64,000 bases of DNA from Acidobacteriota bacterium (GTDB lineage Bacteria > Acidobacteriota > Polarisedimenticolia > Gp22-AA2). A program made the position numbers and the translations under genes. The stretch spans positions 52,803 through 116,802 of the forward strand of contig JAGYID010000001.1 of assembly GCA_018606725.1 (NCBI GenBank), in the 5' to 3' direction. The notes beneath the pieces are model-generated. The model was not told where the DNA came from. It saw nothing but the letters and a program-made list of their open reading frames with translations, and did no database searches. This document shows, in pieces, positions 5,420 through 43,327 of the stretch (its first letter is position 1; each line of letters opens with the position of its first letter).

Positions 5420-6692
5420 GGCGGGCCTGCAGACGGCGCAGCTCCTCGCGCCGATCGGGCTGCTGCGGCTTGAGGGCGAGCGAGCGGCGCAGGTACTCCA
5501 CGGCGGTCTTCGGGTCGTTCTTTTCCTCGTAGGCTTGGGCCAGCGCGTTGTAGAGCGCGGCCGAGGGCTTGCCGGCGCGCTCGGCCCTCTTGAACGCGTC
5601 GATCGCCTGGTCGAATTTCCCCTGCAGCGCGTAGGCCGTCCCGAGATCGAACAGCGCCAGACGGTTGTCCGGCTGCAGCGCCAGGGCCTCCTCGAACGCC
5701 CGCACCGCTTCAGCGTATTTCCCCTGACGGGCGCGCAACCCGCCGAGGCTGATGCGGAACTCGGGGTTCTTCGGCGCCAGCCCGATTGCGGTGGTGAACG
5801 ACAGGGTCGCCTCGTCCAGGCGACCCTCGCGCATGTAGACCTGCCCGAGCCAGTCGTGGTGCACCGCGGAGTCCTTCTTCTTCTCCAGGCTGGCTTCCAG
5901 CAGCCGCTGCAGCTTGGTGATCCTGGCGGCGTCGGCCGACGCCTGGTACATCACATACAGGCGGCTCATCGGCGCCAGCGACGTCGGGTCCAGGTAGAGC
6001 GCGTTGAGATACTCCTCCTCCGCCTGCGGCCGCTTTCCCTCGGCCTCCAGGACCATGCCCATGGCGGCGTGGAACAGGGACTCCTTCGGATCGCGGCCGA
6101 GCGATGTCTCCGCCAGCCGGCGGGCCGACGCGGGGAACTGCCGGTTCAGATAGTCGGTCACGGCGTTGAACACGACCTGGGGCCCGACGTTGCCGAGGCT
6201 GACGCCGTCGTCGGCGATACCGTGGGTCAGCAGATCCGCCGAAACCGCCTGCGTGAACTGGCGCGCCGCCGCCGGGTCCAGGATCTGATCGGCGTTCAGG
6301 CGCTCCGCCCCCTCCAGCACCGCCGCGCGGATCCTCTCCTGGATGTAGATCGTCGACTCGCGGCCGCTGCGGTCGTGATGAAAAGTCAGCACGTCGCCCG
6401 GCGAGGCGCGCGCCGTGACCTTGACCGGCAGCTTGAAGGAGGCCTTGTCGCGCGTCAGGATCTGCACCGCCTCGTCGAAGACGATCGGCCGGCTGTCGTA
6501 GCGATAGACGCGCTGGGCGAACGGCACGCGCAGATGCAACCCGGGCTGGAGGGGCGTGACCGACCCGCCGTACGACTCGCGCACCGCGAACTGTCCGGAC
6601 GGGATCACGACGACGAACGCGGCCGCGAGGAGGACGAGGGCGAGGAGCGCGAGCCACGGACGCCGACGCAGCATGATGGCGGGGTTCTCCAT
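5409..6692 (-). CDS. SPFH/band-7 domain protein with C-terminal TPR repeats, membrane-anchored
   Basis: N-terminal TM segment followed by an HflC/K-like region (QFAVRESYGGSV..PGLHLRVPFAQRVYRYDSRPIVFDE..ILTRD). The C-terminus carries multiple TPR-like repeats (AEAVRAFEEALALQPDN, GKFDQAIDAFKRA). Confidence 0.7.
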   Translation of the reverse strand: MENPAIMLRRRPWLALLALVLLAAAFVVVIPSGQFAVRESYGGSVTPLQPGLHLRVPFAQRVYRYDSRPIVFDEAVQILTRDKASFKLPVKVTARASPGDVLTFHHDRSGRESTIYIQERIRAAVLEGAERLNADQILDPAAARQFTQAVSADLLTHGIADDGVSLGNVGPQVVFNAVTDYLNRQFPASARRLAETSLGRDPKESLFHAAMGMVLEAEGKRPQAEEEYLNALYLDPTSLAPMSRLYVMYQASADAARITKLQRLLEASLEKKKDSAVHHDWLGQVYMREGRLDEATLSFTTAIGLAPKNPEFRISLGGLRARQGKYAEAVRAFEEALALQPDNRLALFDLGTAYALQGKFDQAIDAFKRAERAGKPSAALYNALAQAYEEKNDPKTAVEYLRRSLALKPQQPDRREELRRLQARLRK

Positions 6693-6863
6693 CCGGTCCG
6701 GCCGGCGATTCAGGGGAAAGCCGCTACCGGCGCGGGACGCGGAGTCTAGCGCAGCCCCCCGCGGGTGTCAACGAGATGGGGGAGATGGCGGGCGACGGCG
6801 GGGCGCCCGGCGTTCGTGTAGGATCCGCGACCGGCGGAGGACGCCGTAGGCGACTGCGGAGAG

Positions 6864-10121: not shown

Positions 10122-13100
10122 ATGGCCCGCTACCTCAGGCTCGACCGGATGCAGATCATCGGTTTCAAGTCCTTCTACGGCCGGACCGATTTCGAGTTCC
10201 CCGAGGGGATCACCGCCGTCGTCGGACCGAATGGCTGCGGCAAGAGCAACATCGGTGACGCCATTTCCTGGGTGCTCGGCGAGCAGCGTGTCAGCCTCCT
10301 GCGCAGCGACCGGATGGAGGACATGATCTTCAATGGCAGCGAGGCGCGCCGGCCGCTCGGCATGGCCGAGGTGTCACTGACCTTCAGGAACGTCGCCGCC
10401 TCGCGGGTCAACGGGAACGGCCACGGCGGCAACGGGAGCACGATCGCGTCGGCCGGCGTCAACGGCAGCGATCACGCGCTGGCCATCCCGCTGGCCGCGG
10501 AAATCGACATGGCCGTGATCGAGGCCGCGCCGGGCGGAGTCGCGGCGATCGGGAGCGCGACGGACGAGGCCGAAGCCGGTGGAGCCGAGGCCGACGATGT
10601 CGCGCCGGTGGAGTCGCCGGCAGGGCCGGAGCCGGATGGCCCGCTGTTCACCGAGCTGCCCGACGAGGTCGTTGTGACCCGACGGCTGTACCGGTCGGGG
10701 GAGAGCGAGTACAGCCTCAACGGACGCCGCTGTCGTCTGCGGGACATCCAAGATCTCCTTGCGCGCACCGACATCGGCACCCGCCTCTATTCGACGATCG
10801 AGCAGGGGAAGATCGATCAGGTGCTGGTCGCCAAGCCGAAGGAGCGGCGGGCGATGTTCGAGGAGGCGGCCGGCATTCTCGGTTACAAGTCGAAGCGGCG
10901 CCAGGCCGAGCAGAAGCTCGAGGCGGCGCAGGCGAACCTGTTGCGCATCGGCGACATCGTCGCCGAGGTCGACAAGCAGATCGGCTCGCTCAAGCGCCAG
11001 GCCGCCAAGGCGCGCCGCTACCGCCGGCTGCTGGAGGATCTGCGCGAGCGGCGCCGCGCCATCCTGCACCGCCGGTTGCTGCTGTGCGACGGCGATCGAC
11101 GGACCACCGCCGAAGCGCTGCGGACGCTGCGCGAGGAGGACGCGGCAGCGGCCGCCCGGCTCGCCGGCGAAGAGGCCGACCTCGAGACCGTGCGCCTGAA
11201 GCTGGAGGAGAGCGAAGCGGCGGCCCGCGAGCGCCAGGCCGAGATCCACGCCCTCGATCTGGACATCGACCGGCTGCAGGAGAGGATCCGCAACGCCCGC
11301 CAGCAGGGGGGCGACCTGACGGCCCGGATCGACGAGCTCGAATCCGAGGCCGCGGCGCTGGCGAACCGGGCGGCGGACCTGGAAACCCGCCGCACGGCGC
11401 TGCAGGCGGAGCGCGGCGACTCGGCGCGACGGCTTCAGGAAGGCGATGCGGCGGCGCGGGCGATCCAGGCGGCCCAGGACGAGGCGGCGGCGGAGATCGC
11501 CCGGCGGGAGGCGGCGCTCGAGAGCCAGCGGACCGCCCTGATGACCCGCATCGAGCGCTTCACCGGTCTCACGCAGCGACTGGCGTCGGCGGCCGAACAG
11601 GCGCGGGGCGCGGCCGAGGCGCTCGACAGGATCGAGCGCGAATCGGCCGATCTCGCCGGGCAGGCCGGACGGATCGACACGGGGCTCGCCGAACTGGAGC
11701 GCGACGTCGAAGCGGCCCGCCTGCGGGCGGCCGAGGCGGCGGGAGCGCGCGACCTGGTTTCGGCCGCGGCGGCCGAAGCCGAGCCACGGCTGTCGGAGGC
11801 CGAGCGGGCCGCCGAAGAGATGAAAGGCCGGGCCGCGGCGCTGGCGGAGCGGCTGGTGACGCTGCGCGAGATGGAGCGACAGCACGCCGGCTTCGCCGAG
11901 GGGGTGCGTGAGATCCTCGACGGCGCCGCCGGATGCGCGGCGCAGGGTGTCGTCGGAGAGGGGCTCAGCGTCGAGCGGGGGCTGGAGCAGGCGGCGGAAG
12001 CCGCCCTCGCCGGATTGCTCGAGGCGGTCCTGGTCGCGGGGCCCGACGAGGCGGCGCGCGGCATCCGCCACCTGCGCAGCACGGCGCGCGGCCGGGTCTC
12101 GTTCGTCAGCGCCGGCGCAGCCTCCGAGTGCGCGCCGATGGCCCTGCCGGAAGAGCTGGCGCGCCAGCCGGGGTTGATCGGCTCCCTGGCGGACCGGATC
12201 GGCGGCCCGCAGCCGGGTCCGGTGGCGGCCATCCTGAAGCGCAGCCTCCTCGTCGAGACGCTCGAGCTGGCGCTCGATCTGCATCGCTCGCATCCCGGCT
12301 TCGTCTACATCACGCCGCAGGGCGACGTGGTGCAGCCCGATGGCGTTGTCACAGGAGGCGACGGCCGCGTCCTGCAGCACGGCATCCTGGCGCGGCGCGC
12401 CGAGTTGGAGGATGTGGGGCGCCAGGCGGCGGAGGCGGTGGCGCTGCGTGACGCCGCCGAGGCCCGCCTGCCGTCCCTGCGCGACGCGCTGCTCGCCGGC
12501 CGGGAGAGCCTGCGGGCGGCCGAGGCGCTGGTGGTGGAGTGCGACCGGGCCGGATTCGAGCGCGAGCTGCAGCTGCAGAACCTGCGCGGCGAGCGAGCCC
12601 GCATCGAGCGGGCCCTGCCGCTCCTGCGCGCCGAACGGGAGCGCCTGGCGCGCGCCGCGGAGACCGGAACGGCCGAGGCGGCGGCGCTCCGGGAGGAGGC
12701 CGCCGGCGTCGAGGCCGGGCGCCGCGGGCTGGAGACCGACATCCAGGAGGCCGCCGCGGCGATCGCGTCGCGGCGCGCCGATCTCGAGCGGGTGCGACAG
12801 CAGGCGGCCGAGGCGATGGCCCGCCTCGCCGCGGAGCGCGAGAAGTCCCTCGCGGGCGAACGCGAGCTGGCCGAGCTGGAGCGCTCCCAGGCGGACATGC
12901 GCGCCACCGCCGAGCGACGCCGGGTCGAGAAGGACGAGTGCGCCGCCAGGCAGGCGGCGCTGCACGAGCAGGAAGGCGCCGACGGCCTGCAGCTCGAGGC
13001 GGCGCTCGGCAGACGCGCCGAGGCGGCGGCGCGCGACGAGGCGGCGCACGCCGGGCTGGCGTACGACCGCAGCCTGCTGCACGCCCGCGGGCAGGCGGTC

Positions 13101-33440: not shown

Positions 33441-33719
33441 ATGCGCCTGACGCGCGATCAAGTCGAGCAGATCTCTCAGCGAATCGTGTACGGACTCATC
33501 CGTGACGGGCACGTCGCCACCGACCGCCCCGAGGCGGTCATCGACCGGATCGCGCAGATTTTCACCGACGACCTGGCGGCCGAGGACAAGCTCAACGACG
33601 AAGCGCACGAGCTGCTGAAGAATTACTCGGATGAGATTGCCCGCGGAGCGGTCAACTACCAGGAGCTGTTCCGCAAGGTCAAGGCGAAGCTGGCGCGCGA
33701 TCGCAAGATGGTCATCTGA
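33441..33719 (+). CDS. DUF507 family protein
   Basis: 92-aa acidic/basic helical protein matching the DUF507 pattern. Paired with a paralog that starts 1 nt inside its stop. Confidence 0.55.
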
Positions 33720-34003
33720 TGCGCCTGAGCCACGAACGCTGCGTCCACCTGTCCCACCTCTTCGTTAACGATCTCGAGGATGACGACACGGTCGAGTTTC
33801 TGCGGGACACCAATGACATCCGCCTGAAGGTGTTGCAGATCCTCGAGGGGGAAATGGTGCGTGAGGAGGAGATGGAGGAATCGATCCGGCGCCGGATCGC
33901 CACCCAGCGCAGGGATTTGCCGGAAGGCAGCGCCGAGTGGGATCTCCTGTTCCGCAAGTACTACGACGACGAGATGAAGAAGATCAAGAGGGTCCGTCAG
34001 TAG
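33719..34003 (+). CDS. DUF507 family protein (paralog)
   Basis: 94 aa. Translationally coupled (TGATG junction at 33717-33721). Confidence 0.55.
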
Positions 34004-34025: not shown

Positions 34026-35963
34026 ATGCCGATTCCCCGCCAAATCGTCGCCGGCACCGCTGGCCACATCGACCACGGCAAGAGCCATCTCGTCCGCGCT
34101 CTGACCGGCACCGACCCCGACCGTCTTAAGGAGGAGAAGGAACGGGGCATCACCATCGACATCGGGTTTGCGCATCTGGAGCTGCCCGGCGGCCTCCGGG
34201 TCGGGTTCGTTGACGTCCCCGGGCACGAGCGTTTCATCAAGAACATGCTGGCGGGCGTCGGCGGCATCGATCTGGTGCTGCTGGTCATCGCCGCCGACGA
34301 ATCGATCAAGCCCCAGACACGCGAGCACTTCGACATCTGCGGGCTGCTGCGCATTCCGCGCGGCATCATCACGCTGACCAAGACCGATCTCGTCGAGCCG
34401 GATCTCCTCGATCTCGTCCGGCTGGAAGTGCGTGATTTCGTCGCCGGCTCCTTCCTGGAGTCGGCGCCGGTCGTGGCGGTCAGCAGCAGGACCGGTGAGG
34501 GCCTCGAGGAGCTGAAGGCAGCCATCGCGCGGGTCGCCGCCGATATCGCGCCGCGCCCGCAGCGTGGCCTCCTGCGCCTGCCGGTCGACCGTTCCTTCAG
34601 CATCAAGGGGTTCGGTAGCGTCGTCACAGGCACGCTGAACGCAGGGACCATCCGGGTTGGAGACGAAGTCGCCGTCCTGCCGCGGGGCGTGACCACGCGG
34701 GTGCGCGGCCTCGAAGTGTTCAATCGTCCCACCGAGGTCGCCCTGCCCGGTCAGCGGACGGCCGTCAATCTGCAGGGGATCGAGGCCGGCGCGGTTCAGC
34801 GCGGTGACCTGTTGAGCGCTCCCGGAGTCCTCGAACCGTCGCATCTGCTCGACGTCGAGCTGGAGATACTGGCCGGTGCGCCGGCGCCCCTGCTCGATCT
34901 TGCGCGGGTGCGGTTCCACCATGGAACGCTCGAGGCGATGGCGCGCGTCAAGCTCCTCGGGGAGAAGGCGGTACCGCCCGGCCGCCGCGCCTTCGCCCAG
35001 CTGCGGCTGGAGACCGCCGTCTGCGCCCTGCCCGGCGACCGTTGCGTGATCCGCCGCTACTCACCGTCCCTGACGATCGGCGGCGCGGTCGTCCTGCACA
35101 ACCGGCCGGTGAAGCTGAGGACGTCCGCGCCCGGCGCCCGCGAGCGGTTCGAGCGGCTGGCGCAGGAGGCTCCGGAGACGCGGCTTTCCGTCCTGGTCGA
35201 AGAGGGGGGTGAAGCCGGGATCGATGCCCCGGCGCTGCGCACCCGGACCGGTCTCTCCTTCGAAGAGCAGGTGGAAATCCTGGACGCCATCGTGCGCGAC
35301 GGTCGCCTCGTCCGCCTGCCGACCCAGCCGCCGCGGTATGTGACCGGCTCGATCTACCGGACCCTCTCTGACCGCGTCCTGACCGAGATCGACGCGTTCC
35401 ACAAGAAAGAGCCGCTCCTGGAGGGGCTCCCGAAGGAGGAGTTGCGGACCAGGTTGTTCGCCGGCAGCCACCCGGACGTCTTCCGCTGTCTGCTCGCCGA
35501 CCTCGCGGCGCGCGGCGTGCTGCGAACCGACCGGGATCGGATCGCCCGATCGGCGCACCGGATTGACTTGACGCCGGCCGAGGCCTCTCTCATGGAGACC
35601 ATCGAGCAGCGCTTCGAGACCGCGGGGTCAAACCCGCCCGACCCGGAGGAGGTCCTGAATTCGTTCCGCGCCGGGCGGGCGCAGGCCGCGCGCCTGTTCC
35701 ATCTGTTGATCGGCCGCGGCCGGCTGGTCCGCATTCCGGACGGCAAGATCTTCCACGTCCGGGCCCTGGAAGACCTGAAGCGCCGCCTGTGGGAGCAGCG
35801 GGCCAGGAATCCGGTCATCGACATCGCCGAGTTCAAGGACCTGAGCGGCACGAGCCGCAAGAACGCCATCCCGCTCCTCGAGCACTTCGACCAGTTGCAG
35901 GTGACCCGGCGGGAGGGCAACCGCCGTGTCATATTGCCCCCTCCCCCCCCCGGGCACCCCTGA
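34026..35963 (+). CDS. selB: Selenocysteine-specific translation elongation factor SelB
   Basis: G-domain [18 protein letters not shown], followed by a long winged-helix C-terminal extension typical of bacterial SelB. Confidence 0.85.
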
Positions 35964-36193: not shown

Positions 36194-37954
36194 CTGCAGC
36201 CACCGACACCCCCTCTCAAAGTCCCCGACGAGATCGCCTTCCAGAGGGCCGCGGTCGAACGCCTCAAGAAGGAGATCCGCGGTGTCGACCGGAACGGCCG
36301 CCGGCGCTATATCCGCGATTTTCACGACGAGTTCTCCCGCTTCGAATCGGTCTCCTCGCTCGACGACCTCAGCATCGCCTGCTACAAGGCGGATCTCGTC
36401 TACATCGGTGACTACCATGCCCTGCCGGCCGCCCAGGAGTTCGCCGCCTGGCTGCTGCGCGACGTCGCCGCGCGCTCGCGCGAGGTGGTGCTCTGCCTGG
36501 AAATGGTCTACGCCCGCAACCAGAAGGTCCTCGAACGTTACATGCGGAACGAGCTGGACGAATCCGAGTTCCTCAAGGCGATCCGCTACGAGCTCGATTG
36601 GGGCTACGAGTGGCAGTCATTCCGGCGGTTGTTCGACGCGGCCCGGACGCTGGGGTTGCCGGTGTACGGCATCGACTCGGAGCCGCGCAGCGGCTTCCGG
36701 TACATCGCCCGGCGCGACGCCCACGCGGCGGCCCGCATCGCCGACATCGTGGAAGCCCGTCCGGGCGCCAAGGTCGTGACCGTCGTGGGGGAATCGCATC
36801 TGGCGCGCACCCATCTGCCACGACGGGTCACCGATCTGCTCAAGAAGAAAGGGATCGAGAAACGTCCGGTCATCGTGCTGCAGAACCAGGAAGAGATCTA
36901 CTGGCAGCTCGCGGAGAAGGGCTTGCGGGATGTCGATGTGGTGAGCCTCGGCCCCGGTCGCTTCTGCCACTTCAACGCCAGCCCGATCGCCAAGTACGAG
37001 GCCTACCGGCAGACGATCGAGGCCTGGGACCGCGAGCCTGATGACGACCAGGGGCTCGACCTCACCTCGACCGTCTACAGCATCATCGACACCATCCTGC
37101 GCTTCCTCGGCATCGACAAGTACACCGAGGTCATCGAGCGGCCCGGGCGCGGACACGATTACCTGGTCGACCTCTACCCGGAGGTCTACACCGCCTCGGA
37201 GCACAAAGATCTGAAGAAACTGCTGAAGTCGCACGAGTTCGGGGCCGAGGAGATCGACGAGATCCTGGGGCACGTCTCCGAGCGCGGCTCATGCTACATC
37301 CCGCGCATCAACGGCATCGTCATCGGACAGTTCAACATGGTGCACGCCGGCGAGGAGGCGGCCCATTTTGTCAATCTGATCCTGAAGGGGGAGATCTACC
37401 AGCAGGCGCCGCGCGAGATGCTGCAGCACGACCTGTTCTACACCGGCACCCTGGAGGAGGCGATCGGTTTCTTCGGGTCGAAGCTGATCGATCCGAGCCG
37501 CAACCATTTCTTCGAGACGGAGTTCTATCAGTACTACCGCAAGGACCGCGCGGTGATCGAGGCCGAGACTCCTTACAGCTACGAGGACTTCAACGCGATC
37601 ATCAATTTCATCCTGCTGCACAAGAAGTTCGAGCAGTCGTACGACCAGTATGAGGAGGTTCCGCAGGAGATCCTGGACGGCATCCGCTCCGAGCCGCGGC
37701 GCGCCAATATCCTGATCCACGAGCTGGGGTATTTCCTGGGGCAGCAGATCTACGATGCCTATCGGGCGGGGAGCCTCGACCGGCGGACCATCGCGTCCCT
37801 GTTCCGCCGGTCGTTCAGGGAGAGCGGCAGCGCCCTGCGGGCCTACCTCGATCTCACCGAGAAGGTGCGGCCGGCGGCGCAGGAGCCGGCCGGTGGTCCA
37901 GCGCCGGCCCCTCCGGCCGGGCCCGGCGGTAAAGAATCCCCGTCGACGAGCTGA
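36194..37954 (+). CDS. ChaN/Tiki-like (PF04187-type) protein with a long C-terminal extension; start codon unresolved
   Basis: ChaN-like motifs ADLVYIGDYHALP...VVLCLEMVYARNQ and VVGESHLA. The domain begins upstream of the first canonical start (GTG at 36485). The frame is open back to the TAG at 36185-36187, which is tatA's stop in the same frame, with no ATG/GTG/TTG in between. Confidence 0.5.
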   Translation: MQPPTPPLKVPDEIAFQRAAVERLKKEIRGVDRNGRRRYIRDFHDEFSRFESVSSLDDLSIACYKADLVYIGDYHALPAAQEFAAWLLRDVAARSREVVLCLEMVYARNQKVLERYMRNELDESEFLKAIRYELDWGYEWQSFRRLFDAARTLGLPVYGIDSEPRSGFRYIARRDAHAAARIADIVEARPGAKVVTVVGESHLARTHLPRRVTDLLKKKGIEKRPVIVLQNQEEIYWQLAEKGLRDVDVVSLGPGRFCHFNASPIAKYEAYRQTIEAWDREPDDDQGLDLTSTVYSIIDTILRFLGIDKYTEVIERPGRGHDYLVDLYPEVYTASEHKDLKKLLKSHEFGAEEIDEILGHVSERGSCYIPRINGIVIGQFNMVHAGEEAAHFVNLILKGEIYQQAPREMLQHDLFYTGTLEEAIGFFGSKLIDPSRNHFFETEFYQYYRKDRAVIEAETPYSYEDFNAIINFILLHKKFEQSYDQYEEVPQEILDGIRSEPRRANILIHELGYFLGQQIYDAYRAGSLDRRTIASLFRRSFRESGSALRAYLDLTEKVRPAAQEPAGGPAPAPPAGPGGKESPSTS

Positions 37955-38810
37955 AGGTGTAGGCCGCCGGGATAGGCTCGAGATAGCCGAGCCGCGTCAG
38001 CGCCTGCAGGGTCTCCACGGCCACCGTTTCGGACCATCCGCAGGCGCTGGCGACGTCCTCGGCGACCAGGCTCGAACGCGGCTCGCCGGTCAGCCGCGCC
38101 AGCAGGTCGCGGCAGCGACCGTGCAGGTCGAGGCGGTCCCGCCCGGCGCACAGATCGCGCACCGCGGCGGCCGCCAGCACGGCGGCGCAGCGGCCCAGCA
38201 TCGGCTCGGCGCACTCCAGGAACAGGTCGAAGCGATCGAACCGGTCGGCATGGGCGCAGGTCGCCCCGCTGCAGCGGCGGCCGCGCGACGCCGTCAGGAT
38301 GAGGTCGATCGCCACGTGCTCGATCAGGTGCGCCAGCGCCAGCCCGTCCCCACCGTCCCCCTTGACCGGGCCGGCGGCCGCGTCCGGGATCGCCGCCGAC
38401 GCGATCGCCTCCCCGTCGGCCGCGCCCGTTCCGGCGAGGGCATCGAAGATCCCGAGTCCGCCGGCGCAGCGATGTTCGGGGAGACGGGGACAGAGCCGCA
38501 GGAGCGCCTCGCGCTCAGCTGCGGCGAGGAGCGGCGTCCGCGCGCGCAGGCCGGCGCCGATCTCCAGCGTGACCCGGATGCGGATGACGCCGGGGATGAA
38601 CCGCTCGTTGAACCGGCTGGCCTCGGGGAACTGGCCATGCTGCAGCTGAACGATGCGGATCGAGTCCGGCGGAACATGCGCTTCGGCGCGCTCGGGCGCG
38701 TCGGCACCGCCCCGCCGACGGGTGTGTTTGCTGCGCATCTTGTCGCGGAAACGTCGCAGTAGATCGTCCGACAACAACTCCTCCCGCGGAGGTTGACGGC
38801 GGTGCTTCAA
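37854..38810 (-). CDS. Hypothetical protein (strand and frame uncertain)
   Basis: Either this ORF or its antisense partner (37755..38762 +) may be real. Third-position GC sampling was ambiguous. No recognisable domain. Confidence 0.3.
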   Translation of the reverse strand: MKHRRQPPREELLSDDLLRRFRDKMRSKHTRRRGGADAPERAEAHVPPDSIRIVQLQHGQFPEASRFNERFIPGVIRIRVTLEIGAGLRARTPLLAAAEREALLRLCPRLPEHRCAGGLGIFDALAGTGAADGEAIASAAIPDAAAGPVKGDGGDGLALAHLIEHVAIDLILTASRGRRCSGATCAHADRFDRFDLFLECAEPMLGRCAAVLAAAAVRDLCAGRDRLDLHGRCRDLLARLTGEPRSSLVAEDVASACGWSETVAVETLQALTRLGYLEPIPAAYTFSSSTGILYRRARPEGPALDHRPAPAPPAAPSR

Positions 38811-39010
38811 CGCTCCGTGCGAAGAACCTCCTCGTCCAGGGTCCCCTGCAGGATGACCCGATACTCGCCGGTGTTCTGATCGACCATCTCGACCTGCGCC
38901 GCGGCATTCACGGAGTGGATCAGCAGGTCGCCGAGCTTGGAGCCGAGCGTCGCCGGTGACGTGGGCGAGCTCTCCAACGTCGCGAGATCAGTGATGCGAA
39001 ATCGACTCAT
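38807..39010 (-). CDS. Small hypothetical protein (67 aa), paralog of the adjacent gene
   Basis: ATG at 39010 with an SD gggaga 7 nt upstream. Shares the pattern R-F-x-(I/V)-T-x-...-P-T-S-x-A-x-L-x-x-K-L-...-TGEYR-(I/V)-(I/V)-LQGT-(I/L)-D-x-E with the neighbouring gene. Confidence 0.5.
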   Translation of the reverse strand: MSRFRITDLATLESSPTSPATLGSKLGDLLIHSVNAAAQVEMVDQNTGEYRVILQGTLDEEVLRTER

Positions 39011-39048
39011 GCGCCAGTCTCCCGTCCGGCGCCGGAGGGGCTACGCCC

Positions 39049-39255
39049 TCAGGCGCCCTCAAAAGGGATCTTCTCCGTGTCGATGGTGCCCTGCACGACG
39101 ATGCGGTACTCGCCGGTCGTCGGATTGATCGACTCGACCTTGAGCCGCGCCGACGTCGAGCTGATCAGCATCTCGCTGAGCTTGGTGCGCAGCGCCGCGG
39201 CCGAGGTCGGGGCCTTCTCCAGCAGCGGAAAGTGAGTGACCTGAAAACGCGCCAT
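39049..39255 (-). CDS. Small hypothetical protein (68 aa), tandem paralog
   Basis: MARFQVTHFPLLEKAPTSAAALRTKLSEMLISSTSARLKVESINPTTGEYRIVVQGTIDTEKIPFEGA. ATG at 39255 with an SD ggaggcc. Confidence 0.55.
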   Translation of the reverse strand: MARFQVTHFPLLEKAPTSAAALRTKLSEMLISSTSARLKVESINPTTGEYRIVVQGTIDTEKIPFEGA

Positions 39256-39674
39256 CGTGTGGCCTCCTGATGGAGCCGTCGGCGGTGGCCCCTGTGACGA
39301 GCGGTGCAGCCGCCGGCTCGTGCGTGCAGCCGACCGAGCGGCGGTAAGCGGGCAACGGGACGTGCAGTGCAAGGTGCGCGAGGTCTCTCTGGATCTCATC
39401 CACCAGCTCGTTCAGGACCTCGGCCCCGATCTCGCCGGCGCGCGGAACCTCGGCCGCGCCCGGGTCGCCGGCGAACCCGTTCTGCGCCAGCAGGGCGGTT
39501 TCGTCGGCCCCGACGGCGGTGGGCGGCGGCGAGGGCGCGGCGAGAGGCGCCGGGGGCCGGCTCGGACGCGGCAATGTCTCCCTGGCGCCGGCCGTCCGAT
39601 CGGGCAGGGACGGCAGGGGAATGCGGGTCCAGGCGGTCCCGGCCGGCGTCGCCGTCCGGCGGCCTGACTTCGCT

Positions 39675-40613
39675 TCACGACCCATCGCTGCTCCTGCGGC
39701 GCGGCGTCGCCGGACCCGGGGCCGGGATCGAGGACGCATCCGCCCCCGCGTCAAATTCCGGGGCGGGCCCGGCGCCGGGCTTGGGACGAGCGGCGCCAAA
39801 GGTCCAGAACGAGCCGCTCACCAGTCGCGGCTGGAGGCCGGCCGGCACGGAACCGATCGGCCTGGCCGCCGTCACGGATGCGGTCGGCCGGGCCGCCGGG
39901 GCAGCCCCGGTCGGTCGAGCGGCCGGTGCGGGAACCGGCGCATGCTCGGCCTGCGGCGGAACGGTCGGCCGTGCGGCCGGTGGCGCAGCGGGTGTGCGTG
40001 CTGCCGGCGCGGCCGCGATCGGCTGGGCCGCCGGAGCAGCCGCCATCGGACCGGTCGCCGGCTCCTCGTCGGTGTGTTGCTCGCGCAGATCGAGGATGGT
40101 GTCGGCGACCGAGATCATCCGGCTGCCGGTGGTCCGGGAGTTGAACCCCATCCACGACACCAGACCGGCGTCGTCGACGAAGGGATCGCGATCGAGTTGT
40201 CGGGCGGGAGCCTCATCCTGGGCCTCGGCCGCCTCCTCGTCCTCGGTTGCGGCCGGTTTCGCCGCGGGTGAGGCGGTCAGCTGGCTCTGCGGCCGGCGCA
40301 ACGGCCGGCGGACGTGCTCCTGCGACGACGCCGGCTCGGCCGCCGGCGCGGAACGCTTGGCGCGGGCCGACTTCCTGGTCGCGGCCGGGGGCGCGGCGAC
40401 GGGCGCCGGAGGCGGCGCCTGCTCGTCGAGCGCCTGCGACTCCATCGCCACCGCCACGATGCGCCGGGCAAGCGGCAGCGGGATCTCCGTCTCCTCGGAC
40501 AGCAACTCGGGCCCGGCGCGGGCGATCGCGTCGTTGGTGTCGAAGCCGCACTGCAGCAGACCGTCCATCACTTCGCGGCCGAACAGCTGGATCAGCAACG
40601 TCAGGTCGTGCAT
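39675..40613 (-). CDS. Hypothetical protein: small N-terminal helical domain plus a long Pro/Ala-rich disordered tail
   Basis: N-terminal MHDLTLLIQLFGREVMDGLLQCGFDTNDAIARAGPELL is HhH-like. The remainder is PA-rich low complexity. Sits directly downstream of parA. Confidence 0.45.
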   Translation of the reverse strand: MHDLTLLIQLFGREVMDGLLQCGFDTNDAIARAGPELLSEETEIPLPLARRIVAVAMESQALDEQAPPPAPVAAPPAATRKSARAKRSAPAAEPASSQEHVRRPLRRPQSQLTASPAAKPAATEDEEAAEAQDEAPARQLDRDPFVDDAGLVSWMGFNSRTTGSRMISVADTILDLREQHTDEEPATGPMAAAPAAQPIAAAPAARTPAAPPAARPTVPPQAEHAPVPAPAARPTGAAPAARPTASVTAARPIGSVPAGLQPRLVSGSFWTFGAARPKPGAGPAPEFDAGADASSIPAPGPATPRRRSSDGS

Positions 40614-40674: not shown

Positions 40675-41430
40675 TCAGTGCTCCCCGACCACCTCGCGCG
40701 CCAGGGCCATGTAATCCCTGCAGCCGGTCGCGTCCGGATCGTAGTCGACGATCGGCACGCCGTAGCTGGTCGCCTCCTTGAGCTTCACGTTGGTGTGGAT
40801 GACCGTCCCGAACAGCGCCTCGCCGAAATAGCCGCTGAGATCGCGGAGGATCTCGCGCGAAAACGCCGTGCGCCGGTCGTACAGCGTCGCCAGGGCGCGC
40901 ACCTTCGGGGACCGGCCGCCGTCGGCGGGCACGTCCTGGATCAGCGCCATCAGCTGGCTGACGCCGTACAGCGCGAAGAACCCGGTGTCCACCGTGATGA
41001 TCGTCTCGTCGGCGGCCCGCAGGGCGTTGGCGGTCAGCAGGCCGCCGGTCGGCGGGCAGTCGATCAGCACGAACTCGTAAGCCTCGCTCAAACCGGCCAA
41101 CGCCCGCCGCAGCGTCTCTTCCCCGTGCGGCAGGGCATGCAGCCGCTGCTCGGCCATCAGCAGCCGCGGGTTCGACCGGGCCAGGTCGAAGTTCTCCGCC
41201 ACCGGGTGGATGACCTCCAGCAGATCGGCCCCGCTCATCAGCGCCTCGCAGACACCCGGGCACTCGAGGTCCGGCTTGCCGCGGCTGAGCCCGAGCGACG
41301 CGTGCGCCTGCGGATCGAGATCGACGAGCAGCGTCCGCATCCCGATCTTCGCCAGGCAGGCGCCCAGGTTGATGGCGGTGGTCGTCTTGCCCGAGCCGCC
41401 CTTCTGGTTGGCGATGGCGATCACGCGCAT
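40675..41430 (-). CDS. parA: ParA/Soj-family partitioning ATPase (small, type Ib-like)
   Basis: Deviant Walker A, IANQKGGSGKTTTAINLG. ATG at 41430. 251 aa. Confidence 0.85.
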   Translation of the reverse strand: MRVIAIANQKGGSGKTTTAINLGACLAKIGMRTLLVDLDPQAHASLGLSRGKPDLECPGVCEALMSGADLLEVIHPVAENFDLARSNPRLLMAEQRLHALPHGEETLRRALAGLSEAYEFVLIDCPPTGGLLTANALRAADETIITVDTGFFALYGVSQLMALIQDVPADGGRSPKVRALATLYDRRTAFSREILRDLSGYFGEALFGTVIHTNVKLKEATSYGVPIVDYDPDATGCRDYMALAREVVGEH

Positions 41431-42326
41431 CCCGACCCCCGATCGCCGAGGCCGCCGGCGCTCCGCCCGTTCTGCCGCTCGCGGATGTCCAGCAACAGAG
41501 ATCGCCCGATCCCCCGGAAGCACGCCGCGGCCGGGGAGGCCGGCTGGTTCAGCAGGATCGGCAGGCGGGCCGCGATGGAGGCGCCGATCCGCTGGTCGTC
41601 GAGGACGTGCCCGAGGTAATGCAGCGATCGCGCGAGATAGCGCTGGCTGACCTGCTCGAGCCGGCCGAACACCTCGAACCCCTCCACCGGACTGCCCACC
41701 CGGTTCACCACGACCGACAGCCTGGCGCCCGGGTTGTTGCGCGCGACGTTCTTGATCACCGCGTAGCCATCGGTCATCGATGTCAGGTCGGGGGTGACGA
41801 CGACCAGGATATCCGAAAGGGCATACAGGAACGTCGTCGTGGCGCGGCCGATGCCGGCGCCGGTGTCCACCAGGACGATGTCGGCCCGGCCGTCGGGGTC
41901 GTCGAGCGCCGCGACCAGCCTGGACAGCCGGTTCGGGTGCAGGTCGGCCATGTCGGCGCGACCCGAGCCGCCGGCCGCGAGCCGCATGCCGACCGGCCCG
42001 ACTTCGGAGACCTCGCTGAGCCGGGCCCCGGATTCGATGACCTCCATGATCGTGCGGGACGGCTGGATGCCCAGCAGCAGGTGCAGGTTGGCGAGACCCA
42101 TGTCGGCATCGATCGCCAGCACGCGCGTCCCGACGCTGGCGAGATAGACCGCGAGATTGCTGGTGAGCACCGATTTGCCGGTGCCGCCCTTGCCGCTGGT
42201 GATGCAGAAAACAGCCGCCCGGGGTCCACCGGGGCCGGCGGTCTCGGGCCGGTCCGACGCAGCCCGCCCCGCGACCGGCGGCTGCGCGCCGATGTCATAC
42301 AAGCCGCGCCCGAGGCGGCGCTTCAC
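41421..42326 (-). CDS. MinD/FlhG/ParA-superfamily P-loop ATPase with an N-terminal LGRGL peptide
   Basis: Deviant Walker A, ITSGKGGTGKSVLTSNLA. The N-terminus is MKRRLGRGLYDIGAQ. 10-nt overlap with parA. Confidence 0.8.
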   Translation of the reverse strand: MKRRLGRGLYDIGAQPPVAGRAASDRPETAGPGGPRAAVFCITSGKGGTGKSVLTSNLAVYLASVGTRVLAIDADMGLANLHLLLGIQPSRTIMEVIESGARLSEVSEVGPVGMRLAAGGSGRADMADLHPNRLSRLVAALDDPDGRADIVLVDTGAGIGRATTTFLYALSDILVVVTPDLTSMTDGYAVIKNVARNNPGARLSVVVNRVGSPVEGFEVFGRLEQVSQRYLARSLHYLGHVLDDQRIGASIAARLPILLNQPASPAAACFRGIGRSLLLDIRERQNGRSAGGLGDRGSGCA

Positions 42327-42336
42327 GATGAGCGTC

Positions 42337-43278
42337 TCAGGAGGTTCTCCTGTCGCGTTCGCGTCTCTGCCGGTCGAACCGTTCGAACTCGTCCAGCTCT
42401 TCCGCCGACAGCGGCTCGAAGGGATTATCCGGGCCGGTCGGGGCCATCACCAGCCTGTCGATCTCGAGGTCGAGGCCCCCGCCGGAAACCGGGTCGCCAG
42501 GCAGGGGCTCGTCGGCCAGCGGGAACTCGGGGACCGGCTCGAGAAGATCGGGCGGCGCCGGGAGCGGCGCTGCGACATCGCGCGGCATCGCCTCGCGCAT
42601 GGCGGCGACGCGGGCCGCGACGCGCCGCGATGGCAGCCGGAACACCTCCATCGCAGGCCGTACGGTGACGGCCTCTTCCCCCTTGAAGCGAACGAGCTGT
42701 ACCAGATAGGGGGTGACCTCGACGGCCAGCAGGTCGAGGCGTCGCAGGAAGGGGAACGAGTACGACTCCGCCAGGAGCAGCGACCGGACATTTCGTTCGG
42801 GGCTCAGCCCCTGGGAGGCGTAGGCGCGCGCCAGGATGTCGTACTGATCGCCGGCCCAGAGGGACTGGTCGAGGAGGCGGCGCAGGGCCCCTTCCGGTTC
42901 ATTGTCCGCGAGGGTTATGACCGCCAGCTGGCCCGCCCGGTCGACGGCCAGGACGTCGAGCGTACCGGCCGGACCGGTCTTCAGATCGGCATCGAGCACC
43001 CGAATCCCCACCTCGATGACCGAAGGATCACCGAGAAGGAGCGCTTTGAGTCGGCCCGAATCGCCGACGGGGTCGGTCGCGATGCGTGATGGCACCGCTC
43101 GCCTCGACGCTCTCTTGAAGAACCGCAGGGCAGCCCGGCCACGGCCGGACCGGAAGCGGCAGACTGGTGATGGACTCGCTACGGCTGAATGACGATGCAC
43201 CCGGCTGCCGCGCGGCCTAACCAATGGACCGACAACGGCTTCGGTCGACGCGCATGGTATTCGAGCCGGAGAAGCCAA
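42337..43278 (-). CDS. Hypothetical protein with a C-terminal acidic tail
   Basis: A central region (VLDADLKTGPAGTLDVLAVDRAGQLAVITLADNE) weakly resembles a PD-(D/E)xK / NucS-like strand pattern but lacks the lysine. The N-terminal extent is uncertain. Confidence 0.4.
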   Translation of the reverse strand: MASPARIPCASTEAVVGPLVRPRGSRVHRHSAVASPSPVCRFRSGRGRAALRFFKRASRRAVPSRIATDPVGDSGRLKALLLGDPSVIEVGIRVLDADLKTGPAGTLDVLAVDRAGQLAVITLADNEPEGALRRLLDQSLWAGDQYDILARAYASQGLSPERNVRSLLLAESYSFPFLRRLDLLAVEVTPYLVQLVRFKGEEAVTVRPAMEVFRLPSRRVAARVAAMREAMPRDVAAPLPAPPDLLEPVPEFPLADEPLPGDPVSGGGLDLEIDRLVMAPTGPDNPFEPLSAEELDEFERFDRQRRERDRRTS

Positions 43279-43327
43279 GTCAAGTTCTCAGAGCGGGGAC
43301 GCGCTCCCGGCCGGATAGTGGAATAGA

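Follow-up and report, generated by a model that had tools for sequence, protein, structure and literature searches.

A tandem pair of small proteins of an undescribed family beside a putative zinc peptidase related to the N domain of cyanophycin synthetase

Cargo adaptors of ParA/MinD ATPases, such as ParB, McdB (with McdA) and PomX (with PomZ), carry a basic N-terminal peptide, and peptides of this kind are the usual handle of partner proteins on these ATPases. In cyanophycin synthetase (CphA1) the N-terminal (N) domain holds a Cx19HxxEH motif (H57, C59, H79, E82, H83) that forms a zinc-binding, inverzincin-like 'cryptic third active site'; this site is catalytic, and cyanophycin is cleaved into primers by it (Sharon et al., PMC9262961). 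We analysed a stretch of 64,000 nucleotides (nt) from an Acidobacteriota bacterium (contig JAGYID010000001.1, positions 52,803 to 116,802; the whole stretch is called the window, and positions are counted from its first letter), in which two adjacent genes for small proteins, A and B, lie between genes for two ParA/MinD-family ATPases and a gene for a protein that resembles the N domain of CphA1. The small genes and this last neighbour, called peptidase-like here, are located as follows.

39049..39255, minus strand: gene A, first copy of the small-protein pair, open reading frame (ORF) of 68 amino acids (aa)
38807..39010, minus strand: gene B, second copy of the small-protein pair, ORF of 67 aa
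37854..38810, minus strand: putative zinc peptidase resembling the N domain of CphA1, ORF of at most 318 aa, sub-threshold match to PF18921, homology from the family profile
38780..38792, minus strand: hairpin CCTCC-GCG-GGAGG (stem of 5 bp), located between B and the peptidase-like gene, from a scan for terminator-like structures

A preliminary description of the window had reported two adjacent small genes with good Shine-Dalgarno (SD) sites and a shared sequence pattern, and both ORFs and both SD sites are present as described. The SD of A is AGGAGG at 39264-39269 and that of B is GGGAG at 39019-39023, each 8 nt before the respective ATG, and 38 nt separate A from B. A gap-free alignment of the two proteins shows 45% identical and 70% similar residues (E 8e-22), which confirms the paralogy. 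In word-indexed searches, which gave ~30 close relatives per query, A and B retrieved separate ortholog sets, where the orthologs of A share 65-100% identity; all of these relatives are annotated as 'hypothetical protein' and come from metagenome-assembled genomes (MAGs) of Acidobacteria or Candidatus Polarisedimenticolia. That the proteins belong to an unannotated family was likewise borne out, as neither A nor B matched models in Pfam, NCBIfam or PADLOC or sequences in the PDB, and their AlphaFold2 (AF2) models gave no fold match.

A pattern scan of species-representative MAGs, with one genome per species, recovered 126 loci encoding the small family in at least five phyla: Acidobacteriota, Eisenbacteria, Zixibacteria (some bins of which carry the label Ignavibacteria), Latescibacterota and Gemmatimonadota, plus a few other labels. 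With a profile built from 42 diverse members, 537 clusters (90% identity) were found, all of them in uncultured members of the five named phyla. A full HMMER search of 1.8 billion representatives gave 137 hits at E up to 1e-3 among 50%-identity representatives, the clear matches being nearly all 64-72 aa long. The proteins start directly with a conserved M-x-[RK]-F motif. For proteins of this size the conservation is remarkable: neither family alignment (A2 or A3) shows any variation at S33, T47, G48, Y50 and G56, M1 and E49 are invariant in A2 and conserved to at least 90% in A3, and E13, P16, S18, P19, L22, V40, N44, R51, L54, T57 and D59 are conserved to at least 90% across phyla. The conserved part thus comprises residues 1-59, and only the last 7-12 residues are variable. 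A literature search found no description of the small family or of stand-alone homologs of the CphA1 N domain. The A/B family is described by no known family or fold, and the three-gene module that it forms with the peptidase-like gene is likewise undescribed.

Copy number was counted in 85 loci, of which 66 have two tandem copies, 16 a single one, two have three and one has four; Zixibacterial loci contain an additional degenerate paralog of 69-82 aa. In a neighbour-joining tree the first and the second copy form separate clades within Zixibacteria, within Eisenbacteria and within both the window-type and the second-type loci of Acidobacteriota, with A among the first copies and B among the second copies of the window-type loci. 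The duplicates are therefore older than the radiation of each of these lineages and have been kept since, so that the A/B duplication is old and retained; with its 68 columns the tree fits one primordial and several separate duplications equally. The loss of one copy in close relatives was looked for, but all ~20 window-type relatives keep both, so a recent neutral duplication is not supported. Two-domain fusion polypeptides also exist in nature (P0196 and P0234), which is a classical sign of two copies acting together. From the conserved tandem pair a heteromeric function had been suggested at the outset. The separate clades in at least four lineages and the fusions fit this idea, whereas the 16 single-copy loci among the 85 show that a homo-oligomer can suffice as well. 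Some Acidobacteriota have two modules per genome, as in the QHXX01 MAG (L006 and L021) and in the pairs L016/L045 and L014/L046; these consist of a two-copy locus linked to ATPase genes and a single-copy locus with its own peptidase-like gene, in which no ATPase genes were detected.

The pair had been introduced as a neighbour of a ParA cluster. As the main context of the family this cluster has to be replaced by the peptidase-like gene, since the ATPase pair is found in ~33 of 89 loci and the peptidase-like gene in 85 of 88. In these 85 loci, determined by mapping of the operon proteins of the window and by a dedicated search, the gene adjoins the small genes on the same strand, and at least one of the three remaining loci (L039) ends at a contig end. 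The small genes precede the peptidase-like gene in 58 distinct cases and follow it in 23, and within the core clade the two stand side by side on the same strand, in either order, in ~96% of the loci. In the window the likely start of the peptidase-like gene is a TTG at 38777, giving 307 aa, and a gene call of 307 aa is found in a near-identical contig. In one database protein of 178 aa (P0194), residues 1-52 of a small-family member are joined to a shortened peptidase-like sequence, which may reflect a real deletion fusion or an artefact of assembly or gene calling. In two different Zixibacterial genomes (L081 5554-8213 and L087 5347-10207) the module is divergent from an adjoining succinate dehydrogenase operon and comprises the peptidase-like gene, a degenerate paralog of 82 aa, two genes of the small family and a gene for a very basic protein of ~62 aa with an aromatic-rich C terminus (WWFG, CWRFE).

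It is the neighbour, and not A or B, that is related to the N domain of CphA1 (PF18921; PDB 7LG5 and 7WAC), and this relation rests on several observations. A profile of 17 peptidase-like sequences matches residues 20-211 of cyanophycin synthetase (CphA1 chains in the PDB) with E 2.6e-8, and three orthologs reach 38.5 (L081), 34.1 (L087) and 37.5 bits (L088) against PF18921, above the cut-off of 27 bits. H113, C115, H161, E164 and H165 are invariant in the 17 diverse sequences and form the H-x-C...H-x-x-E-H arrangement in common with CphA1, where these are the zinc-binding and general-base residues; both also share a conserved G and a conserved T in the strand that binds the substrate. The same alignment shows G182, T184, R193, D195 and E199 as further invariant positions. 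The motif is intact in 77 of 81 distinct peptidase-like sequences, with 20-63 residues between Cys and His compared to 19 in CphA1. Unlike CphA1, the peptidase-like protein is free-standing, without the G and M domains, has additional invariant residues (R193, D195, C200) and a winged-helix-like C-terminal half, for which only weak matches of this type were obtained, and has the small proteins as neighbours. A whole cyanophycin synthetase was rejected as its identity, as the proteins of 220-318 aa have no ATP-grasp G and no Mur-ligase-like M domain and match TIGR02068 over 80 residues with 16.8 bits at a cut-off of 850. Judged from these profiles, the partner gene appears to be a new, free-standing variant of the known CphA1 N domain.

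We tentatively favour the interpretation that A and B form a heteromer which works with, or is processed by, the peptidase-like protein, and that this complex serves, in Acidobacteriota, as cargo for the ParA/MinD ATPases; as a whole we consider this quite possible, although short of probable. A and B would be two subunits, long diverged, of a single small cytoplasmic protein, most likely an A-B heterodimer that builds a larger oligomer. They would act together with the neighbour product, which is free-standing and homologous to the N domain of cyanophycin synthetase with its cryptic C-H-H zinc-peptidase site. The AF2 monomer models, with confidence (pLDDT) values of 60 and 75, are open and non-globular, from which we infer that the small proteins fold only as oligomers. 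They show a helix-helix-hairpin or, in a shallower run, a strand-helix-hairpin arrangement with a first helical element of 4-9 residues and a long beta-hairpin after the helices. The variable acidic/aromatic C-terminal tails of A and B might dock in the HxxEH cleft or be trimmed there, and docking or trimming would then control the assembly or the turnover of the oligomer.

The tails also bear on a purely passive role, in which A and B are pro-proteins or peptide precursors, comparable to those of ribosomally synthesised and post-translationally modified peptides (RiPPs) or bacteriocins, and are only cleaved by the neighbour, by removal of the tail or release of a peptide. The adjacency of a peptidase-like gene with intact catalytic motif in 85 of 88 loci, the one to four copies typical of precursors and the restriction of variability to the last 7-12 residues would all fit such a substrate. 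However, the whole body of 60 residues is conserved and has predicted secondary structure, in place of a leader with a hypervariable core, the tails are short, not rich in Cys, Ser or Thr and have a recurrent aromatic residue, no modification enzymes or exporters are encoded nearby in the annotated loci, and orphan members occur without a peptidase. We therefore regard this role as unlikely.

Alternatively, A and B could be accessory or inhibitory subunits that are not cleaved but gate the active site of the peptidase, the true substrate of which would be a polymer or another protein, and they would replace the contacts that the N domain has with the G and M domains inside CphA1. Substrate binding by the CphA1 N domain also uses residues of the M domain, so a free N-like domain may need partners, and the gene spacing is tight and often translationally coupled. 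In the window, the hairpin at 38780..38792 pairs the SD of the peptidase-like gene with an anti-SD; it could hold the level of the peptidase below those of A and B and would suggest a set stoichiometry. On the other hand, inhibitors and regulators normally outpace their enzyme in evolution, whereas here the conservation of the small proteins is roughly double that of their neighbour. Zixibacterial small proteins share 44-56% identity with those of the window and the peptidase-like proteins 22-31%, and between Acidobacteriota and Zixibacteria in general the values are ~50% and ~26%. As several retained paralogs are also unusual for an inhibitor, we give the regulatory role a minor place among the possibilities.

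The part of our favoured interpretation that concerns the cargo is based on the upstream genes. A, B and the peptidase-like gene are genes 6-8 of a cluster of eight minus-strand genes, in the order NucS-like, FleN/FlhG-like MinD, Soj-like ParA, helix-hairpin-helix (HhH) plus low-complexity protein, p142, A, B and peptidase-like.

43254..43283, minus strand: sigma-70-like promoter match heading the cluster of eight genes, one match compared to 0.2 expected in shuffled sequences
42337..43278, minus strand: first operon gene, with a weak NucS-like (PD-(D/E)xK-like) region (NucS E 8.8e-5, PDC-S11 E 9.8e-6)
41421..42326, minus strand: FleN/FlhG-like MinD-family ATPase (minD_arch 124.6 bits, CbiA E 3.5e-15), RRLGRGL peptide at the N terminus
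40675..41523, minus strand: Soj-like ParA ATPase (AAA_31 E 3.2e-45), Walker A NQKGGSGKT
39675..40613, minus strand: protein of 312 aa with an HhH-like region at the N terminus, followed up by a weak match to that of RadA, and with extended low-complexity sequence rich in Pro and Ala
39059..39685, minus strand: conserved gene 'p142' (142-143 aa in relatives), found in 19 loci

Both ATPases carry the deviant Walker A motif KGGxGK[ST] and match their family profiles. The FleN-like ATPase (Walker A SGKGGTGKS) has FleN 5J1J as closest solved structure (E 2.4e-47), and the Soj-like ParA has ParA 8RAY and Thermus Soj 1WCV; the ORF of the Soj-like ParA extends to 41523, with the likely start at an ATG at 41430, which gives 251 aa as in relatives. 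The order of the cluster together with the flanking ChaN-like, tatA and selB genes is conserved in ~20 relatives. A second order in Acidobacteriota is A-B-peptidase-NucS-like-MinD-ParA (e.g., L088), and in a third (type 3; L057, L058, L060 and L077) MinD-ParA-HhH is followed, after further genes, by a single small gene and the peptidase-like gene. These three distinct gene orders argue for a functional link between the ATPases and the module. The NucS-like gene was found in 22 loci and accompanies both ATPases in both gene orders, its homolog in L088 being located between the peptidase-like gene and MinD, and the position of the HhH-like protein is conserved in window-type and type-3 loci. Clustering of neighbouring ORFs is noisy in genomes of ~70% GC owing to ORFs in alternative frames and was used only for the counts of ATPase, NucS-like and p142 genes.

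The co-occurrence of the small pair with the ATPase pair, a check proposed with the preliminary description, was seen in part: the ~33 loci with ATPase genes all belong to Acidobacteriota, whereas none were seen in loci with 8-10 kb of flanking sequence from Eisenbacteria, Zixibacteria, Latescibacterota and Gemmatimonadota. The module is therefore autonomous, and the ATPase link a lineage-specific addition. A basic N-terminal extension of the peptidase-like protein is present solely in ATPase-linked loci, with the motifs DELLRRFRDKIRGR in window-type, 'MPRR...' in type-2 and SETLRESFQEKMRQKG in type-3 loci, and most Zixibacterial peptidase-like genes have an in-frame stop at most 40 codons (in many cases at most 8) from the start of the conserved core. 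By analogy, the best candidate for the contact with the ATPases is thus the peptidase-like protein and not A or B. In Acidobacteriota it would have gained its basic N-terminal peptide and the module would have joined an operon of Soj-like ParA, FleN-like MinD and DNA-binding-type accessory genes, and the complex would probably be positioned or partitioned along the nucleoid as a cargo. The Soj-like ParA in the operon and the basic extension where ATPases are present resemble the known ParA/MinD cargo systems. The locus differs from them by two different ATPases, the additional NucS-like and HhH-type proteins and the small-protein/peptidase module as cargo, and no centromere or organelle genes were recognised at it.

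A further likeness to these systems is that the FleN-like ATPase itself begins with a ParB-like LGRGL peptide (MKRRLGRGLYDIG; window 42288-42326, minus strand). Related peptides are found on the MinD-family ATPase of other loci (RRLGRGLHDLG and SLGRGMSDLIG; L004 ~6680-6720 and L088 ~12330-12370). In ParB the N-terminal LGRGL motif is the region that contacts ParA, and by analogy one of the two ATPases may regulate the other.

That a single operon encodes two small proteins and a pair of ATPases would also agree with A and B being activators or adaptors of MinE/ParG type, one for each ATPase. The conserved basic residue at position 3 could point in this direction, and the strand-helix-hairpin of the first AF2 run has the order of the MinE dimerisation domain. 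By eye the small proteins resemble MinE over helix and hairpin, and with MinE they have in common the small size, a dimer-forming logic and, in the window, a nearby MinD-family ATPase. However, about two thirds of the loci, including all those outside Acidobacteriota, have no ATPase but keep R/K3, and type-3 loci have a single small gene beside both ATPases; the constant co-occurrence with MinD that characterises MinE is thus not seen. The N-terminal helix for membrane targeting and MinD contact is absent, as no region of ~30 residues precedes M-x-[RK]-F. Profile similarity was not found either: none of 128 members matched MinE (PF03776) in Pfam at E up to 10, hhalign against MinE of E. coli and N. 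gonorrhoeae gave a probability of 0.2%, and ParG had no Pfam match. We consider such a role of A and B very improbable.

A more far-reaching version of the cargo idea would be that A and B are building blocks of a hitherto unseen self-assembling cytoplasmic lattice, filament or small compartment of Acidobacteriota and the Fibrobacteres-Chlorobi-Bacteroidetes (FCB) group, nucleated or matured by the CphA1-N-type zinc peptidase, with the Soj-like and FleN-like ATPases of Acidobacteriota segregating the structure over the nucleoid. In this version the stand-alone peptidase would also be a plausible ancestor of the primer-making N domain. With GvpA/J/M and the BMC-H shell paralogs the small proteins have in common the size of ~70 aa, slow evolution over the full length, one to four tandem paralogs and a core of helix and beta-hairpin. 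They differ in that sequence and profile matches are lacking and the hairpin is amphipathic, not hydrophobic, and no gvp or microcompartment genes occur in any annotated locus. This version is rather improbable.

Coming back to the heteromer that acts with the peptidase-like protein, several observations weigh against it. The peptidase-like protein of the window scores 21.1 bits against PF18921 (Cyanophycin synthase-like N-terminal domain), under the Pfam cut-off of 27, and zinc binding and activity are extrapolated from CphA1. The single small gene in 16 loci means that a heteromer is not obligatory. A conserved aromatic residue in many tails favours docking over removal, and no cleavage site could be named. 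As most lineages are without ATPases, the cargo reading covers one phylum only. Finally, the fusion P0196 is located between nadA/nadB and a deacetylase gene without a peptidase-like neighbour, and P0251 is an isolated small-family gene, again without this neighbour. Both are more divergent members (E ~1e-8 to the small-family profile), and the small protein therefore would have some activity alone; the label 'obligate partner' appears valid for the core PTSP/TGEYR clade only.

Several known families were compared to A and B and rejected. The preliminary description had matched the pair to none of GvpA, MinE, ParG and dodecin, and this stands: in addition to the MinE result given above, dodecin (PF07311) had no Pfam match and an hhalign probability of 0.2% over 5 columns (with an approximate Halobacterium dodecin sequence as query), GvpA had no Pfam match, no gvp genes in any annotated locus and no hydrophobic segment as counterpart, and ParG or other ribbon-helix-helix proteins had no match in Pfam or NCBIfam. 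In these proteins an N-terminal strand is followed by two helices of ~12-15 residues, whereas the first helical element of the A/B models has 4-9 residues and a long beta-hairpin comes after the helices. A Flp-pilin-like protein (G...EY) was discarded in view of the lacking hydrophobic segment and secretion genes, and a RiPP or bacteriocin precursor in view of the conserved residues 1-59 with regular secondary structure, the tail of 7-12 residues and the lack of modification or export genes nearby. For a function in anti-phage defence, A, B and the peptidase-like protein had no PADLOC match, and the synteny with selB, tatA and the ChaN-like gene is stable. In the PDB the small-family profile matched only designed Kelch-repeat proteins (SAKe), through hairpin segments of 15 residues whose scores were summed, which is a repeat artefact.

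The weak signal for the C-terminal domain of cyanase (PF02560) was followed further. The small family might be a very distant, shortened version of this domain, which forms intertwined dimers, with an enzymatic or small-anion-binding role. The order of the cyanase domain is two helices plus hairpin. Weak PF02560 matches recur in 9 of 128 members (best E 0.005, far under any curated threshold), hhalign places residues 23-57 on residues 113-149 of E. coli CynS over 35 columns that include the hairpin (P 0.003), and the motifs PT[SD]P...R and ...EM[LI]...S can be found by eye in the same order. In this alignment S32 and not the invariant S33 falls on Ser122, and Arg96 and Glu99 of cyanase pair up by eye only and with other spacing. 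With a verified CynS sequence alone the hhalign probability was 10%, but with a profile of 57 sequences, from metagenomic cyanases, it fell to 0.4%. As the similarity is not significant with real profiles, and a fold match and an N-terminal helix-turn-helix-like domain are missing, the cyanase relation was rejected as scarcely probable.

If our favoured interpretation is true, two small subunits and a free-standing CphA1-N-type peptidase make up a new, widely distributed three-gene module, with carriers that all belong to uncultured phyla. It would be the first context for the CphA1 N domain outside cyanophycin synthetase and would bear on the origin of the 'cryptic third active site'. The ParA/MinD positioning systems would gain, in Acidobacteriota, a new and unusual cargo with an arrangement of two ATPases. 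Many conserved families have no known function, but even without a function the small family merits an entry of the DUF (domain of unknown function) type, and the pairing is a directly testable biochemical hypothesis.

Some further observations were made at the locus. The ORF of p142 in the window has no stop at or near the ATG of A, where its orthologs end, and continues for 65 codons across A in another frame; this read-through could represent a genuine extension of the C terminus, the loss of a stop or simply the scarcity of stops in high-GC sequence. In the near-identical contig (L089) p142 was skipped by the gene caller. At the other end of the cluster, the ChaN-like gene (36485..37954, plus strand) converges with the peptidase-like gene, and their 3' ends overlap by ~100 nt (37854-37954). 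The locus is flanked by selB, encoding the selenocysteine-specific elongation factor (34026-35963, plus strand), so the organism probably makes selenoproteins. Beside selB a second tandem pair of small paralogs was found, with one gene at 33719-34003 (plus strand) and the other immediately upstream; the pair encodes DUF507 proteins of 92-94 aa and is conserved in relatives (L001 15530-16092).

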